This document shows positions 4,326 to 62,570 of a DNA stretch of 64,000 nucleotides, piece by piece. The DNA is from a virus (Duplodnaviria > Heunggongvirae > Uroviricota > Caudoviricetes), in IMG/VR virus record IMGVR_UViG_2778261571_000004, one strand, 5' to 3'. The notes below the pieces were generated by a model. The model made no database searches. It saw only the letters and a list, made by a program, of their open reading frames with translations, and was not told the DNA's origin. Numbering within the stretch: position 1 is the first letter of the stretch; each line of letters starts with the position of its first letter. Both the position numbers and the translations under genes were made by a program.

Positions 4326-4344
4326 ATGATCGTAAGTATGTACT
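4326..4344 (-). promoter_or_regulatory. motif-2 palindrome (GTAAGTA-tg-TACTTAC), approximate
   Basis: Inverted repeat between a terminator and the SD of gene 3893..4288. Confidence 0.4.
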
Positions 4345-4414
4345 TACAATACAAAAAAGCCCCGTAAGGATGGCGGGGCTGTCGTACGGTCGACTAATTA
4401 CCACTTGCACATTA

Positions 4415-14646: not shown

Positions 14647-15890
<1,244 letters not shown>

Positions 15891-22798: not shown

Positions 22799-22943
22799 GT
22801 GGACTCCATCCAGTGTCAGAAAGAGTTGCGGCTGGCGATTGCCAGCCGCCTTTCTCGTTCCATCCTGGAACTGTGTCTTACCGACACATTGTCATCCTGA
22901 CGCTGATAAGATACATGATTTAAAATGATAGGTAAACACTTAC

Positions 22944-23537
22944 TTACCACTTGTTATAAACAAAACCAATATCTTTCTTGTGAGGCATATCTGCTGCTGA
23001 AAAAGCTGCGATCTTCGCGAGTCGATCACATATTTCATTTTCACGATGCCCGGCGTGACCTTTAACCCACTTCCAGCGAACATTATGTCGACTTGCGGCC
23101 TCATCCAGACGCTTCCACAGATCAACATTCTTTACCGGTTTTTTGTCAGAAGTCATCCATCCATTGCGTTTCCACCATTTCATCCACTGTGTCATGCCGT
23201 TTTTCAGATACTGGCTATCAGAGTGCAAAATAACGTTGCATGGATATTTCAAACGCTCCAGCCCGATAAGTGCGCCCATCATCTCCATGCGGTTATTGGT
23301 GGTGCTATGAAAACCATCTGAGAACTCGCGTTCCTCACCACGATACTGGAGAACGATACCGTAACCGCCCGGGCCACCCGGATTTTTAAGGCAAGAGCCA
23401 TCACTAAAGATTTTCACGGTTTTGAGCTGGGGATTGAACTCTACGACAGGCGTTGTGGGATTGGTGCGGGGAGAATTTTTGTTTTTGGCTTTTTTGCGAG
23501 TTTTTGCTTGCGATCGGGCTGGTGTCTTCGTCGTCAT
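22944..23537 (-). CDS. rnhA: ribonuclease HI with lysine-rich N-terminal extension
   Basis: DGSC..GPGGYG..TNNRMEL..HSDSQY..VKGHAGH..NE.CD motifs as in bacterial RNase HI; AGGAG SD before Met18 of the track ORF. Confidence 0.8.
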
Positions 23538-24119
23538 ATAAACTCCTGAATCAAGCGCCGCGCCGATTTTTTCCTCGCGCGTGCGCACACGCGTGCGTGT
23601 TAATAATTATTAAAATAAACAAATTACTTCCCAGAACAGGTTTTTATAAACCTGAACTGAACGAACGAAGTGAGTGAAGTTCACCTCGAACGAAGTGAGA
23701 GGTTGTCTTTTCAGGTAATACTCTCCCAGGGAGGTGAGTATAAAATTCCTCACCAACCTGGTCGTTTCATAACCTGAAAAGCTATGGTCTAAGTCTACTG
23801 CCAGCTTAGACTTGGGAAGTTATGGATGACAGCACCCCAGAACCGAGATCTTCCCACACTTTATGAAGGGGAGTACTGGATTCAACCTCTCGAAACACCC
23901 CAGACTCGACAATCATAAAGTGACCCTTGTCTCTGCTCACTTTGGTTCCCCCTTCCCCGACACCTATACGGCACCGGTTCTACGCTGGTAGTGAGCTTTT
24001 TTAAACCTGACGCCAGTGACGCTTACCCCCACCCATCAGGTCGAGCCTCCAGTCTACGACTGGAAACTATCATATCTTAGCACTTACAATTCACTTTATG
24101 AATAGTTTGTACTTATCTA

Positions 24120-24350
24120 TCATTGTGATTGATTATTTTCTCGACCATGTAGTTGAACATTCAAGGCAAACACCTCATTGATCAACTCACCTAAAAGCTG
24201 TTCAACAAGTTCGCGATGCTCGCCAAGATGCAAGCACTTAATTGCCCACTCGTACAAGTTGAAAGCCTGCTCACGATCTTTCATCATTTCACGAGCCTGG
24301 GCCAGAAAATCGCTCTCTACGAGCGCAACGACATTAGTCGGGTATGACAT
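24120..24350 (-). CDS. small hypothetical protein (start at Met9 of track ORF)
   Basis: AAGGAAA SD before Met9. Confidence 0.4.
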   Translation of the reverse strand: MSYPTNVVALVESDFLAQAREMMKDREQAFNLYEWAIKCLHLGEHRELVEQLLGELINEVFALNVQLHGRENNQSQ

Positions 24351-24535
24351 GTTGGTTTCCTTAAAGTGGTTCATAAAATCGATTTTAAAGCGTCTGGGAA
24401 GGGGTTCTAGTGGATTCTGTAGTGATGTTCAGGTCTGGAGTCTCTGATACAAAACAGCCTGCTTCCGTATATTAATAATTAATATGTAGTTATTTATATA
24501 TACAGAAGCAGGCTAATTACAGACGCCAGAACAAA

Positions 24536-25129
24536 CTAAGCAGCCTTCTTTGATGGTCTTTTTTTCCTGATCACATTCGCAGGATCATACCCTCCCAGAC
24601 TTTTCATGACGTCCAAAGGGATCTTGCTTATAGAGTGCCCAGCGTCCTGACAGAATCCTCGAAAAACAACGAGCATACTGCCACCGGGGTTGATGTTTAC
24701 TTCTACCTGACCCAAATTGACGTCAGGCTCGACAAACGCTACGCGGCCACCAGACAGAATAATCGTCTCATTCGCACACTCTGTTGCACGCTCATACCAC
24801 TTTGTATCGAGGGATTGAGGAATTAGCATCACTGTTGTAACTCCGCGAGCCTGCTCACGTATAGCCGCATCAATCCAGGGGGAGATTTTGGAGTAGGGTG
24901 GATTGAGGAAGGCAATTGTACCTGGCTGTCCCCATTCAGATTTCAAAGCATCACGCTCAACGCCTATGAAATTAGGCAGCTTCGCATTGTCCTTGTTGCA
25001 GGCAACGTCAACATCAAATGTCACTCCAAGATAACGTTGAATGGCAGAAAACAGCCAGTCAGGTGTTCTCCAGAGGTCACGAAGAGAGTTGTCGCGCTTT
25101 CGCTGTTTGATTTTTTCGGCTGCAATCAT
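24536..25129 (-). CDS. DNA N6-adenine methyltransferase, phage Dam family (orphan)
   Basis: WRTPDWLF...FDVDVAC...FLNPPYS signature of small phage Dam-type MTases; no cognate nuclease adjacent. Confidence 0.7.
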   Translation of the reverse strand: MIAAEKIKQRKRDNSLRDLWRTPDWLFSAIQRYLGVTFDVDVACNKDNAKLPNFIGVERDALKSEWGQPGTIAFLNPPYSKISPWIDAAIREQARGVTTVMLIPQSLDTKWYERATECANETIILSGGRVAFVEPDVNLGQVEVNINPGGSMLVVFRGFCQDAGHSISKIPLDVMKSLGGYDPANVIRKKRPSKKAA

Positions 25130-25140
25130 CTTCTTTCTCG

Positions 25141-25160
25141 ATAGGTAAGTGATTACCTAT
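25141..25160 (-). promoter_or_regulatory. motif-2 palindrome (ATAGGTAAG-tg-aTTACCTAT) upstream of Dam-family gene, approximate
   Basis: Inverted repeat about 12 nt 5' of the start. Confidence 0.4.
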
Positions 25161-29979: not shown

Positions 29980-29998
29980 AGATAAGTAATTACTTATT
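29980..29998 (-). promoter_or_regulatory. motif-2 palindrome (GATAAGTA-at-TACTTAT), approximate
   Basis: About 15 nt 5' of the ThyA-like start. Confidence 0.4.
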
Positions 29999-34695: not shown

Positions 34696-34715
34696 AGATA
34701 AGTACTTACCTATCA
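34696..34715 (-). promoter_or_regulatory. motif-2 palindrome (GATAGGTAAGTACTTATC) upstream of nrdA, approximate
   Basis: Followed in transcript sense by hairpin gggccact..agtggccc. Confidence 0.4.
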
Positions 34716-40164: not shown

Positions 40165-40363
40165 ATGTCATTTTTCTGTGATTGTTAGCCGAGGCAACGA
40201 TAACCCACCAGGTGCGCCGAAGGTAGTAAATGCCTGTTTTAATTATTCACATATCCACAGGATAGATCCTAATAAAGAGATCCATAGATAGATCCTTGTA
40301 TAGATCAAATAAGATCCCCGATCGCTGTAAGCCGCGCCACGACTGGTCTGAAGCCATGTTCAT

Positions 40364-40467
40364 GTATGCTGCCAGCGGTAATTGATAGTCTGTCAACGGT
40401 TCGCCGTATGCTGCCAACTGTTTTTGGTATGCTGCCAGCGGCAAATCAAGTATGCTGTCAGCGGTTG
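40364..40467. repeat. iterons upstream of rep (about 5 copies of GTATGCTGYCAGCGGT-like 16-mer), approximate
   Basis: Direct repeats read in sequence. Confidence 0.7.
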
Positions 40468-50052: not shown

Positions 50053-50381
50053 TGATGCCCGCCAATTGGCGGGCATCTGTTCTCTGTAAAGGTGTCTGGC
50101 ATCGTCTGGTTCGTTAACGTTTACTAAACCAATGGTGACAAAAATTAGTTATCTTTGAAAAATAAAGGTTGCATGAAAAGAAGGGGTATGCGTTAATAGC
50201 ATCGTTGGTTTGCAAGACAGACCTTATGTAAGCAGTTTTAGTAAAGCAGTCTCAGTTCAGTGTTATCTTCTGATTTCCCTTCTTCGTGAGTCTCCTCCTT
50301 AAGTGCCTAAGTAAGTCCCAATCTATACAGATCAAATTCTCGCCGCACTATGTGGCTCACAAAATTAAGAAGGTAATATCT

Positions 50382-50597
50382 ATGTCTAATAAAATGACTG
50401 GTTTAGTAAAATGGTTTAACTCTGATAAAGGCTTTGGCTTTATTTCTCCTGCTGATGGCAGTAAAGATGTTTTTGTACATTTTTCGGCAATTCAGAGTAA
50501 TAATTTCCGCACTTTGGAAGAAGGCCAGCAGGTCGAATTCTCTATCGAGAATGGTGCTAAAGGCCCAGCAGCAGCAAATGTCGTTGCTCTAAGCTGA
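50382..50597 (+). CDS. cold-shock protein, CspA family
   Basis: [20 protein letters not shown]...[11 protein letters not shown]1/RNP2 motifs; long 5' leader. Confidence 0.85.
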
Positions 50598-50873
50598 TTC
50601 AACGCTGATGATCCTCATTTCTACAATAACGAAGACGGTGTAAGCCTGAGTGGATAGATTTGTAGGATTGTACAAGTTGAATAAATTAGCATGGTAAGGC
50701 CATGCTAATTAAATCGACACAACGGCCAGTTTATTCCATAAAAGTGAATTGCCCATTGTGGCGAAATGCGGGGTTGCCGCATGAATAGTCAAAGGCAGAA
50801 GCTAACTGCCGGCATGGCAAAACAAAGTGCGTAAGAGGAGTGACTTCCTCAACAAGCGCCATAATTCTTTATA

Positions 50874-58545: not shown

Positions 58546-58561
58546 GGTAAGCACTTACCAG
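58546..58561 (+). promoter_or_regulatory. motif-2 palindrome (GGTAAG-ca-CTTACC) about 30 nt upstream of the HTH regulator gene, approximate
   Basis: Perfect 6-bp arms. Confidence 0.45.
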
Positions 58562-60950: not shown

Positions 60951-61100
60951 TGCGCTGAAAAAAAGTGTTGCTAGGATGTTAGCAAGCTATGGTTAAGAAC
61001 GTCTGCCGTAATTGTCTATCACAGCGTTGAGCGGTCTGGTTTATGTTAGCGGAGTCTTAATCTGGGTGATTAAAAGGCCAAACCGCTCAACGCTGTGTCT

Positions 61101-61186
61101 GGCGGAGAGTAATGGAATCGAACCATCATCGCTTGCGCAATGGGACGGTTTTCAAGACCGCTTGAGCACCATGCTCCCTACTCTCC
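61101..61186 (-). tRNA. tRNA-Ser (anticodon UGA), type II with long variable arm, approximate
   Basis: GGTTCGATTCC T-loop, CUUGAAA anticodon loop, 7-bp acceptor pairing, encoded CCA; hand-folded. Confidence 0.55.
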
Positions 61187-61550
61187 GGCCGTTGTGGTGG
61201 CCGGTACTGAATCTCCGGCATACGGTGCAGCCAATTAGGACTACGGACGATCACCGCTCGCGAAAGGGAAGATTTGCGGCCGCATTTCCCTAACATCCAA
61301 GAAAGCTATCGCATCAGTCTGCGAATCCACCACAACGGTAAGATCACTACCTTTCGACCAGTCATTGTGCACATGAACGACGATTAACCGTAATGATCTT
61401 ATCGTTGTGTTGTGAAGCCAGATGCTTATCTTCTGGTTGCTTCAAAGAGCTGCACTTCCTCACAACGGTAAGAGCACTGGTCTGACTCTATCGATTTACG
61501 GGCTTGTGGGTCAGTATCGCCGATTCGCCCAATGCTCTTACCTGTTGTGT

Positions 61551-61626
61551 TGGTGCCGGTTAACGGGATCGAACCGCTGACATCCTGCTTACAAGGCAGA
61601 CGCTCTACCAACTGAGCTAAACCGGC
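61551..61626 (-). tRNA. tRNA-Thr (anticodon UGU), approximate
   Basis: GCCGGTT acceptor, D-arm GCTCAGTTGGTAGAGC, anticodon loop CUUGUAA, GGTTCGATCC, CCA. Confidence 0.65.
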
Positions 61627-61630
61627 AATT

Positions 61631-61717
61631 TGGTGGGGAGTGATGGAGTCGAACCACCCGAGTCGCAATGACAGTAGATTTACAGTCTACCCCGCTGCCC
61701 CTACGGACTAACTCCCC
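61631..61717 (-). tRNA. tRNA-Tyr (anticodon GUA), type II, approximate
   Basis: Anticodon loop CUGUAAA, long variable arm, GGTTCGACTCC, CCA. Confidence 0.6.
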
Positions 61718-61722
61718 TAAAT

Positions 61723-61797
61723 TGGCGATGGTGGGTGGATTCGAACCACCGACCAGTTGGTTAACAGCCAACTGCTCTACCGCTGAGCTACACCATC
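61723..61797 (-). tRNA. tRNA-Asn (anticodon GUU), approximate
   Basis: GATGGTG acceptor, GCTCAGCGGTAGAGC D-arm, anticodon loop CUGUUAA, GGTTCGAATCC, CCA; sequence differs from E. coli tRNA-Asn as I recall it. Confidence 0.7.
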
Positions 61798-62546: not shown

Positions 62547-62570
62547 TAAGTAAGTAAATACTTATCACCA
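62547..62570 (-). promoter_or_regulatory. motif-2 palindrome (GATAAGTA-agtaaa-TACTTATC), approximate
   Basis: Perfect 8-bp arms. Confidence 0.4.

Follow-up and report, generated by a model that had tools for sequence, protein, structure and literature searches.

Large and intricately folded RNAs are rare in bacteria, and those that have been solved are ribozymes, ribonucleoprotein cores or unusual assemblies. The c4 RNA of P1/P7, the CI RNA of P4 and the CA RNA of N15 are about 70–80 nucleotides (nt) long and pair with repeated targets. We have analyzed a 64,000-nt stretch of viral DNA (IMG/VR record IMGVR_UViG_2778261571_000004, hereafter the window), which is part of an Escherichia coli phage-plasmid of the SSU5/pHCM2 group, and within it the 582-bp gap at 23538–24119 that extends from an open reading frame (ORF) of 84 amino acids (aa) to the gene encoding RNase HI (rnhA). 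An initial annotation, made from sequence, described this gap as a non-coding and highly structured region of about 580 bp, which is confirmed here; its placement upstream of RNase HI is also borne out, since the genes around the gap lie on the minus strand. Among the three candidates then proposed (structured non-coding RNA, origin or packaging site), the structured RNA is strongly supported: compensatory changes and an asymmetry between G·U and A·C pairs speak for it, as do the conservation of the promoter, the terminator that one variant has and the transcript data that have been published. The origin finds no support, as the phage-plasmid has a Rep3 replicon elsewhere and the gap lacks origin signals, and a packaging site has none either, although no direct test of it was made.

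Comparison of related elements indicates that the gap is more constrained than the genes that surround it. Indeed, the RNA core is 91–96% identical to the copies in pHCM2, Klebsiella, Enterobacter, Cronobacter and Kluyvera, whereas in the same comparison the neighbouring Dam methylase, 84-aa ORF and rnhA genes are 76–81% identical. In an alignment of eight genomes the flanking coding sequences are rich in third-position changes and the stretch from 24046 to 23630 is nearly invariant. A non-coding stretch that is better conserved than its three coding neighbours is evidently under a constraint of its own.

The high structure attributed to the region is also recovered, both in the folding energy and in comparative covariation: the minus strand is predicted to fold with −159.4 kcal/mol, against −135.6±6.1 kcal/mol for shuffled sequences (z = −3.9, with 0 of 100 shuffles as good). 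However, the plus strand beats its shuffles as well (z = −3.6), so that the folding of a single sequence cannot assign the strand. We have carried out the comparative analysis on two alignments, one of 56 distinct copies of the type present in the window (type 1; alignment A1) and one of 20 sequences which includes a 69%-identical variant (type 1b; alignment A5). RNAalifold predicts 128 pairs on A1, of which 8 have compensatory double changes and many others switch between G·U, G-C and A-U. On A5 it predicts 96 pairs, with 99.1% of the cells paired, and both sides have changed in 28 of these pairs (131 cells); sliding the 3′ partners by 1–3 columns leaves 4–6 such pairs and 10–16 cells, and none of 500 shuffles reaches the observed values. 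The consensus energy on A5 is −93.0 kcal/mol for the minus strand and −63.7 for the other one, and the predicted pairs hold 253 G·U cells against 3 A·C cells. This asymmetry is not expected of a structure on the other strand or of a DNA cruciform, which argues that the folded molecule is a single minus-sense strand, most simply RNA. These results show that the fold is under selection and that the minus strand is the one that folds.

The inverted repeats on which the initial annotation had based its description are all present, namely a GC palindrome centred on GTGCGCAC (23576–23593), caggttt/aaacctg (23632–23659) and ggtgag/ctcacc (23726–23761), and the repeated units correspond to two exact 13-nt direct repeats, CGAACGAAGTGAG, at 23662–23674 and 23687–23699. 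Dense inverted repeats and a pair of direct repeats could also belong to a site that acts as DNA through its hairpins, for packaging, single-strand initiation or the binding of a protein array, and one PLSDB record (H72) in fact begins inside the element. Nevertheless, a circular record may be opened at any point, the excess of G·U cells denotes one strand selected to fold with wobble pairs, the region is transcribed and has a conserved promoter, and the constraint covers about 420 nt rather than a few short sites, with no iterons or tandem repeats found in the element by a dedicated scan. A DNA-level site is thus very improbable.

In respect to transcription, a sigma-70-type promoter is found just past the stop codon of the 84-aa ORF, with a predicted start at about 24067–24068. 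All variants conform to TTnAnn, 17 nt and TAnnAT, mostly with a preceding TGn, and the spacer sequence is free to vary between lineages. The promoter in the window matches the consensus at 8 of 12 positions and was therefore not listed by a consensus promoter scan; the promoter and terminator scan gave no canonical intrinsic terminator in type 1. In related loci a palindrome of the type GTAAGTA-(0–2 nt)-TACTTAC overlaps or precedes the −35 hexamer, and a second copy follows the RNA. In the window 17 sites match this palindrome when up to 2 mismatches are allowed, where 1.5 would be expected and none of 100 shuffles attains that number; they include those at 4333–4346, 22932–22943, 25145–25156, 29983–29996, 34698–34709, 58547–58558 and 62547–62564, and several of the sites that were checked fall in gaps immediately upstream or downstream of genes. 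The palindrome has the look of an operator or promoter element present at dispersed sites, similar to the C1 operators scattered over P1.

[quoted passage not shown] In the S1 Table of Misson et al., which gives log2(fpkm+5) values (fpkm, fragments per kilobase per million) for ten samples from LB, medium and macrophage conditions, CYRAN_81 ranges from 6.8 to 10.35, the 84-aa ORF (CYRAN_80) from 3.1 to 5.8 and RNase H (CYRAN_82) from 2.6 to 5.0, and the paper places CYRAN_81 at 12 times the local background (PMC9928086). The RNA region is accordingly 10–40 times more abundant than either flanking gene, rnhA being at background level, and the region is about as abundant as the putative repressor CYRAN_45. 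These counts show that, in the plasmid state of the element, transcripts of the region far outnumber those of the genes on either side. Covariation, strand asymmetry and a promoter with a detectable transcript, as expected of a gene for a structured non-coding RNA, are all found at this locus.

Two other Cyrano transcripts deserve mention. CYRAN_43 (OV696614 40268–40822, 555 nt), located beside the integrase and the putative repressor, exceeds every other transcript of the element by a wide margin, at 723 times background. The signal of CYRAN_40 (OV696614 39021–39356), which is 15 times above background, is probably that of tRNAs, since the genes for tRNA-Thr and tRNA-Ser overlap it on the opposite strand.

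The statement that the gap has no ORF needs a correction, as short ORFs do exist, the longest being the GTG-started frame of 44 aa annotated as CYRAN_81, but none of them is conserved. That this frame is a small protein gene, as annotated in OV696614, would agree with the transcription of the region; however, one-base insertions or deletions shift or truncate it in 16 of the 56 distinct copies, the nucleotides downstream staying nearly invariant, type 1b has no equivalent of it, and the substitutions track helix pairing rather than codons. A small protein gene is thus hardly credible here.

The 5′ end of the proposed RNA was placed from the promoter and the 3′ end from where conservation stops, around 23625–23610; the parts recognized between these limits, which comprise at least 15 helices, are collected in Table 1 together with the neighbouring features. 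The 5′-terminal hairpin, P0, lies at a fixed distance from the promoter and has a stem which differs wholly in sequence yet is always complementary in at least eight variants. In the long hairpin H1 four pairs have compensatory double changes and a fifth goes from U·G to U-A. The invariant GAGAGGUUG (23883–23891) is complementary at 9 of 9 positions to CAACCUCUC (23697–23705), a candidate long-range pairing for which the alignments hold no covariation information. Type 1b retains both 13-nt repeats, in the forms CACUCCGUUCG and CACAUUCGUUCG. The terminal hairpin is followed by a U-rich tail at 23610–23630 and is not a canonical intrinsic terminator. Beyond it, the motif GCGCGAG(G/A) is found after the RNA in type 1b loci too; GCGCGAGRAAA and CACTTCGTTCG, when sought elsewhere in the window, occur at chance level only.

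Table 1. Position of the proposed RNA gene, its predicted parts and the neighbouring features in the window.
Feature	Position	Strand	Remarks
Palindrome, degenerate copy (GATAAGTACAAAC)	24105–24117		GTAAGTA..TACTTAC type; copy in SSU5 perfect
Putative −35 hexamer, TTCATA	24097–24102	minus	relatives: TTTAAA, TTTACG, TTTACT, TTTACC, TTTACA
Putative extended −10, TGcTAAGAT	24074–24082	minus	relatives: TAAAAT, TAGAAT, TACAAT, TAACAT, TATGAT
Whole proposed RNA gene, ~450 nt	23610–24068	minus	alignments, covariation, strand test, expression (PMC9928086)
Conserved core	24046 to 23625	minus	
P0, 5′-terminal hairpin CCAGUC-GUA-GACUGG	24049–24063	minus	read directly from alignments
H1, long hairpin with conserved strands GAUGGGUGGGGG and CACUGGCG	24004–24042	minus	
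Junction domain: helix GCUCAC/GUGAGC around a hairpin (23957–23977), conserved single strands ACCAGCG and GGGGAAGGGGGAACC	23935–23996	minus	
Hairpin domain CACUUUAUGA/UCAUAAAGUG with inner helices	23857–23922	minus	invariant GAGAGGUUG inside
Hairpin UGGGAAG/CUUCCCA, inner stem GGGUG/CAUCC	23813–23856	minus	3 compensatory pairs, type 1 versus type 1b
Hairpin GUCUAAGCUG/UAGACUUAGAC	23787–23811	minus	compensatory changes at 5 pairs
Long hairpin CUUUUCAGGUUAUG/UAUUACCUGAAAAG, inner CCAGG..GGUGAG/CUCACC..CCUGG	23707–23781	minus	
Invariant 3′ block: 13-nt repeats CUCACUUCGUUCG (23662–23674, 23687–23699) around a short hairpin	23650–23713	minus	
Terminal hairpin UCAGUUCAGGUUU-AUAA-AAACCUGUUCUGG	23631–23660	minus	inner stem covaries (UA to GC)
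AT-rich tract, GC palindrome (23576–23593), GCGCGAGGAAAAAA (23567–23580)	23566–23609		between RNA and RNase HI ribosome-binding site
44-aa ORF (CYRAN_81), GTG start	23806–23940	minus	not a conserved coding sequence
Dam methylase	24536–25129	minus	one gene beyond the 84-aa ORF, upstream side
84-aa ORF, upstream neighbour	24120–24374	minus	phrog_5343, no Pfam family; locus marker in all relatives
RNase HI, downstream neighbour	22944–23537	minus	197 aa, basic N-terminal extension; Pfam RNase_H E=1e-44
Rep3-family initiator of the plasmid replicon, 404 aa	40366–41577	plus	Pfam Rep3_N
Two adjacent DnaA-box-like sites	40243–40259		precede the Rep3 initiator

PLSDB has 687 plasmids with the sequence of the gap, their hosts being Klebsiella, Escherichia, Enterobacter, Salmonella, Citrobacter, Cronobacter, Shigella and others. 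It is also present in 12 phage records and, nearly always plasmid-borne, in 232 of the 5426 complete genomes of E. coli; none of the E. coli RefSeq records listed has a feature annotated under the RNA. Several divergent types occupy the same position. Type 1b, found in IMG/VR (loci L231–L235) and later in Enterobacter wuhouensis (L241), lies behind a homologue of the 84-aa ORF that is 61–64% identical. Type 3, in Raoultella (L242), is at the same locus and far more divergent, keeping P0, H1 and several motifs. In type 3b, from Morganella (L240), the RNA is directly upstream of RNase H within a block whose orientation with respect to the 84-aa ORF is reversed; the promoter there comes close to the consensus (TTTACA-17-TAAGAT), and motifs shared with type 1 are collinear along the whole length. 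A 51-position covariance model of H1 (model R1) recovers both the Raoultella and the Morganella sequences at 50 bits (E ~3e-12), with many compensated pairs.

A distinct scenario is found in Klebsiella elements of the pCAV1099-111 / pCRKP18622 type (type 2), in which the synteny comprises Dam, a small ORF (47–50% identical), about 450 nt of conserved non-coding sequence and RNase H. This sequence is likewise structured, with 121 predicted pairs of which 10 are compensated among nine sequences, and it comes with an intrinsic terminator, a P0 hairpin and a promoter-like site of its own. However, no alignment to type 1 is possible, the two having in common just two short words in collinear order (GGTGGGGG and AAAAGCTCA), and model R1 does not match it; a type 1 profile run with nhmmer against the distant loci also gave no matches. 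On these sequence comparisons, type 2 may be an analogue or replacement of the type 1 RNA or an extremely diverged homologue of it. In two type 2 loci, the stretch from the RNA terminator to the RNase H start holds 3–4 tandem GCGAAAC(A/G) units (L148 4250–4300, L149 4255–4300).

A scan of the GTDB species representatives with a profile of the 84-aa ORF returned only two Kluyvera loci, both of type 1, and an IMG/VR scan with a degenerate H1 pattern yielded no contigs but known SSU5-like ones, apart from a single chance match within a coding region of a high-GC actinophage. The position after the RNA is a variable cargo spot, which holds a gene of the Tad2-like (anti-Thoeris) family in Enterobacter wuhouensis (L241 3931–4242) and ParE and MazE-type genes in Xenorhabdus (L239 3369–4492); in Morganella, YoeB/Phd-type genes are found upstream of Dam (L240 551–1053).

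Among the closest described systems is RNA II/RNA I of ColE1, which would suggest an R-loop origin in which a G-rich transcript stays on the DNA and is cut by RNase HI to prime lytic or plasmid replication. The present RNA resembles RNA II in length and folding and is made while the element is a plasmid, the gene that comes next is in most cases that for RNase HI, there is an AT-rich tract beyond the RNA, and the RNA strand is G-rich over 23800–24100 (plus-strand GC skew −0.18 to −0.33) with G runs. However, the phage-plasmid has a plasmid origin of its own about 16 kb away (40.2–41.6 kb in the window), with a Rep3 initiator, DnaA boxes and a 21-bp repeat of 2.5 copies at the start of the rep ORF (40390–40441). 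At the RNA locus, by comparison, the DnaA-box scan is at chance level (two one-mismatch sites in the region), no iterons are present and the cumulative skew is monotonic, with no inflection at the element, so that the origin put forward in the initial annotation is not supported. Furthermore, there is neither sequence similarity nor an Rfam match to RNAI or a ColE1-type RNA; no antisense promoter like that of RNA I is found in the 5′ domain, the sole promoter-like site nearby on the plus strand (24061–24090) facing away; the G runs are paired within conserved helices; expression of RNase HI is low while that of the RNA is high; and several lineages keep the RNA without an adjacent rnhA. Overall, a primer function is improbable. 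An apparent resemblance of ACGCGCGAGGAAAAAA to ColE1 was dropped, as the ColE1 sequence concerned corresponds, on the opposite strand, to the region of the RNA II promoter and not to the origin.

We consider it probable that the element is an autonomous gene for a structured RNA which acts as RNA in the plasmid-state programme. We are considerably more confident that it is an RNA gene, and considerably less so that it acts in trans by binding a protein. In the mechanism that we propose, a stand-alone gene on the minus strand, co-directional with its neighbours, would be transcribed from the sigma-70-type promoter starting a few bases before P0, and the structured non-coding RNA of about 450 nt would fold into P0, the long G-rich H1, the junction domain, four more hairpin domains and the invariant 3′ block, with its two CACUUCGUUCG repeats and the last hairpin. 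The folded RNA would then act in trans, most plausibly as a component of the plasmid-state (lysogenic) programme that binds a protein of the phage or the host, or sequesters it. Action in trans is suggested by the size and complexity of the RNA, by the discrete architecture of the gene (the type 2 terminator and a protective 5′ hairpin) and by the invariant single-stranded blocks; from their sequence conservation, ACCAGCG, GGGGAAGGGGGAACC and the two CACUUCGUUCG repeats look like binding surfaces.

A number of observations weigh against this interpretation. Type 1 is devoid of a canonical intrinsic terminator, which makes its 3′ end uncertain, and the RNA-seq data are gene-level counts for which the paper does not state strand-specific counting, so that the strand and ends of the transcript are inferred. 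Also, high coverage of the RNA along with 10–40 times lower coverage of rnhA resembles an attenuator in its off state, and the adjacency to rnhA is the majority arrangement, which is kept even through the inversion in Morganella. These last two points would be accounted for by a cis-acting leader, in which the promoter drives an early operon led by rnhA, with the folded RNA as the switch that either lets transcription pass into these genes or ends it ahead of them; the position of the RNA between a promoter and same-strand genes, and the intrinsic terminator between RNA and RNase H in type 2, are in line with this.

On the other hand, the downstream gene is not constant: besides rnhA, which follows in most loci, we find an unrelated 160-aa ORF (L007), an inserted betT (L008), a 207-aa ORF (L231–L235), the Tad2-like gene (L241), a 183-aa ORF (L242) and an opposite-strand gene (type 2 loci L154 and L155). 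As the RNA is retained with other downstream genes, it does not depend on rnhA, contrary to what its description by reference to RNase HI had implied, although a functional link between the two may exist in the common arrangement. At least six different downstream genes, one of them on the opposite strand, are a poor fit for a gene-specific sensor, as a gene-specific riboswitch or attenuator leader would call for one constant class of downstream gene. About 450 nt with at least 15 helices is also far above the size of known attenuator or processive-antitermination RNAs, and no terminator/antiterminator alternative was found in type 1. A cis-acting leader is therefore unlikely, and the autonomous RNA gene is the interpretation that we retain.

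In the window, the minus-strand genes follow the order DnaQ-like exonuclease, 269-aa ORF, Dam methylase, 84-aa ORF, gap and RNase HI, and identity in this region amounts to 98% with Escherichia phages CMS-2020a, PhiR41_1 and Cyrano, and to 83–87% with phage SSU5 of Salmonella and with phage-plasmids of Klebsiella. Members of the 84-aa ORF family are restricted to Enterobacterales, and a PDB profile search with this ORF gave no meaningful match. The Rfam covariance-model scan that the initial annotation had suggested found no family matching the gap. At gathering scores, Rfam 15, whose families include ROOL, GOLLD, OLE, HEARO, RNAI, C4, CsrB, 6S, tmRNA, RNase P and group I/II introns, returned for the whole window only a cspA leader and tRNAs, and at E≤10 the interval 23300–24600 gave chance-level miRNA-type matches, none above 26 bits. 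At E≤1 the type 2 loci L148 and L149 and the Moellerella locus L150 were negative, in a scan that left out the type 3 loci. A source of spurious miRNA-type matches is a 10-bp inverted repeat between Dam and the 84-aa ORF (AGCCTGCTTC / GAAGCAGGCT, 24447–24513, with an AT-rich loop of about 40 nt), which is terminator-like and followed by GUUUUGU on the gene strand. The cspA thermoregulator match (RF01766) covers the full length of the 5′ untranslated region model at 50204–50622 on the plus strand (187.6 bits, E=7e-50), and presumably the phage-plasmid carries a cold-shock-type leader and a csp gene with it. The tRNA genes form a cluster at 61100–61797 on the minus strand (Ser-TGA, Thr-TGT, Tyr-GTA and Asn-GTT), all 4 being found by ARAGORN and 3 by Rfam at gathering score. 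A perfect 12-nt tandem repeat of 3.5 copies, CTTACCGCTGAG, is located at 15207–15248.

The RNA is the most conserved stretch of its neighbourhood, yet it is unannotated in RefSeq and was once labelled a protein "moron"; our literature search found no prior description of it, CYRAN_81 being the only published trace. The result thus amends the annotation and gives the core of a major group of phage-plasmids an RNA gene. The RNA is abundant in clinical Enterobacterales and occurs in pHCM2 of Salmonella Typhi as well as in phage-plasmids of Klebsiella, Enterobacter, Cronobacter and Citrobacter, of which some bear resistance genes. PhiR41_1, which plates on MG1655, and LF82/Cyrano are tractable systems in which to study it.

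Among known systems, HK022 put and T-box leaders similarly lie directly after a promoter and ahead of same-strand genes, and a terminator follows one variant of the present RNA; however, this RNA is far larger and more complex, its downstream gene varies and it has no match in Rfam. With the c4, CI and CA immunity RNAs it shares being a non-coding RNA of the lysogenic state of a plasmid prophage, with a pair of short direct repeats and, in relatives of this element, an anti-repressor or Rha-type gene a few kb downstream. It is, however, six times larger and does not match the Rfam C4 family, and a search of the other 63 kb of the window (about 45 kb of the element lie outside it) gave no complementary stretch of 12 nt or more, which argues against a simple antisense role of the c4/CI kind as far as the window goes. 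A type III toxin-antitoxin RNA, which like ToxI would have a tandem array of ~36-nt units ahead of a toxin gene, was rejected, as there is no tandem repeat but only two 13-nt repeats 25 nt apart.

The nearest likeness in kind is to ROOL and GOLLD, which also extend over hundreds of nt with many covarying helices, occur in temperate phage genomes and have functions that are not evident from sequence. No covariance model links them to the present RNA, which is found in Enterobacterales phage-plasmids and not in Firmicutes or environmental phages, and which is not adjacent to tRNA genes, these being 37 kb away. More tentatively, and with much less confidence than in the RNA gene itself, one may envisage a new class of large ornate RNAs ranking with ROOL, GOLLD and OLE, specific to the SSU5-supercluster phage-plasmids of Enterobacterales and with the RNA itself as plasmid-state effector. 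If so, the RNA might be a ribozyme, a self-assembling particle or a decoy controlling lysogeny, copy number or defence and counter-defence, and the unalignable RNA of the pCAV/pKpn type at the same locus would be its analogue or an extremely diverged version of it. In any case, the RNA described here is a new family and, in kind, another large ornate RNA of temperate phages.

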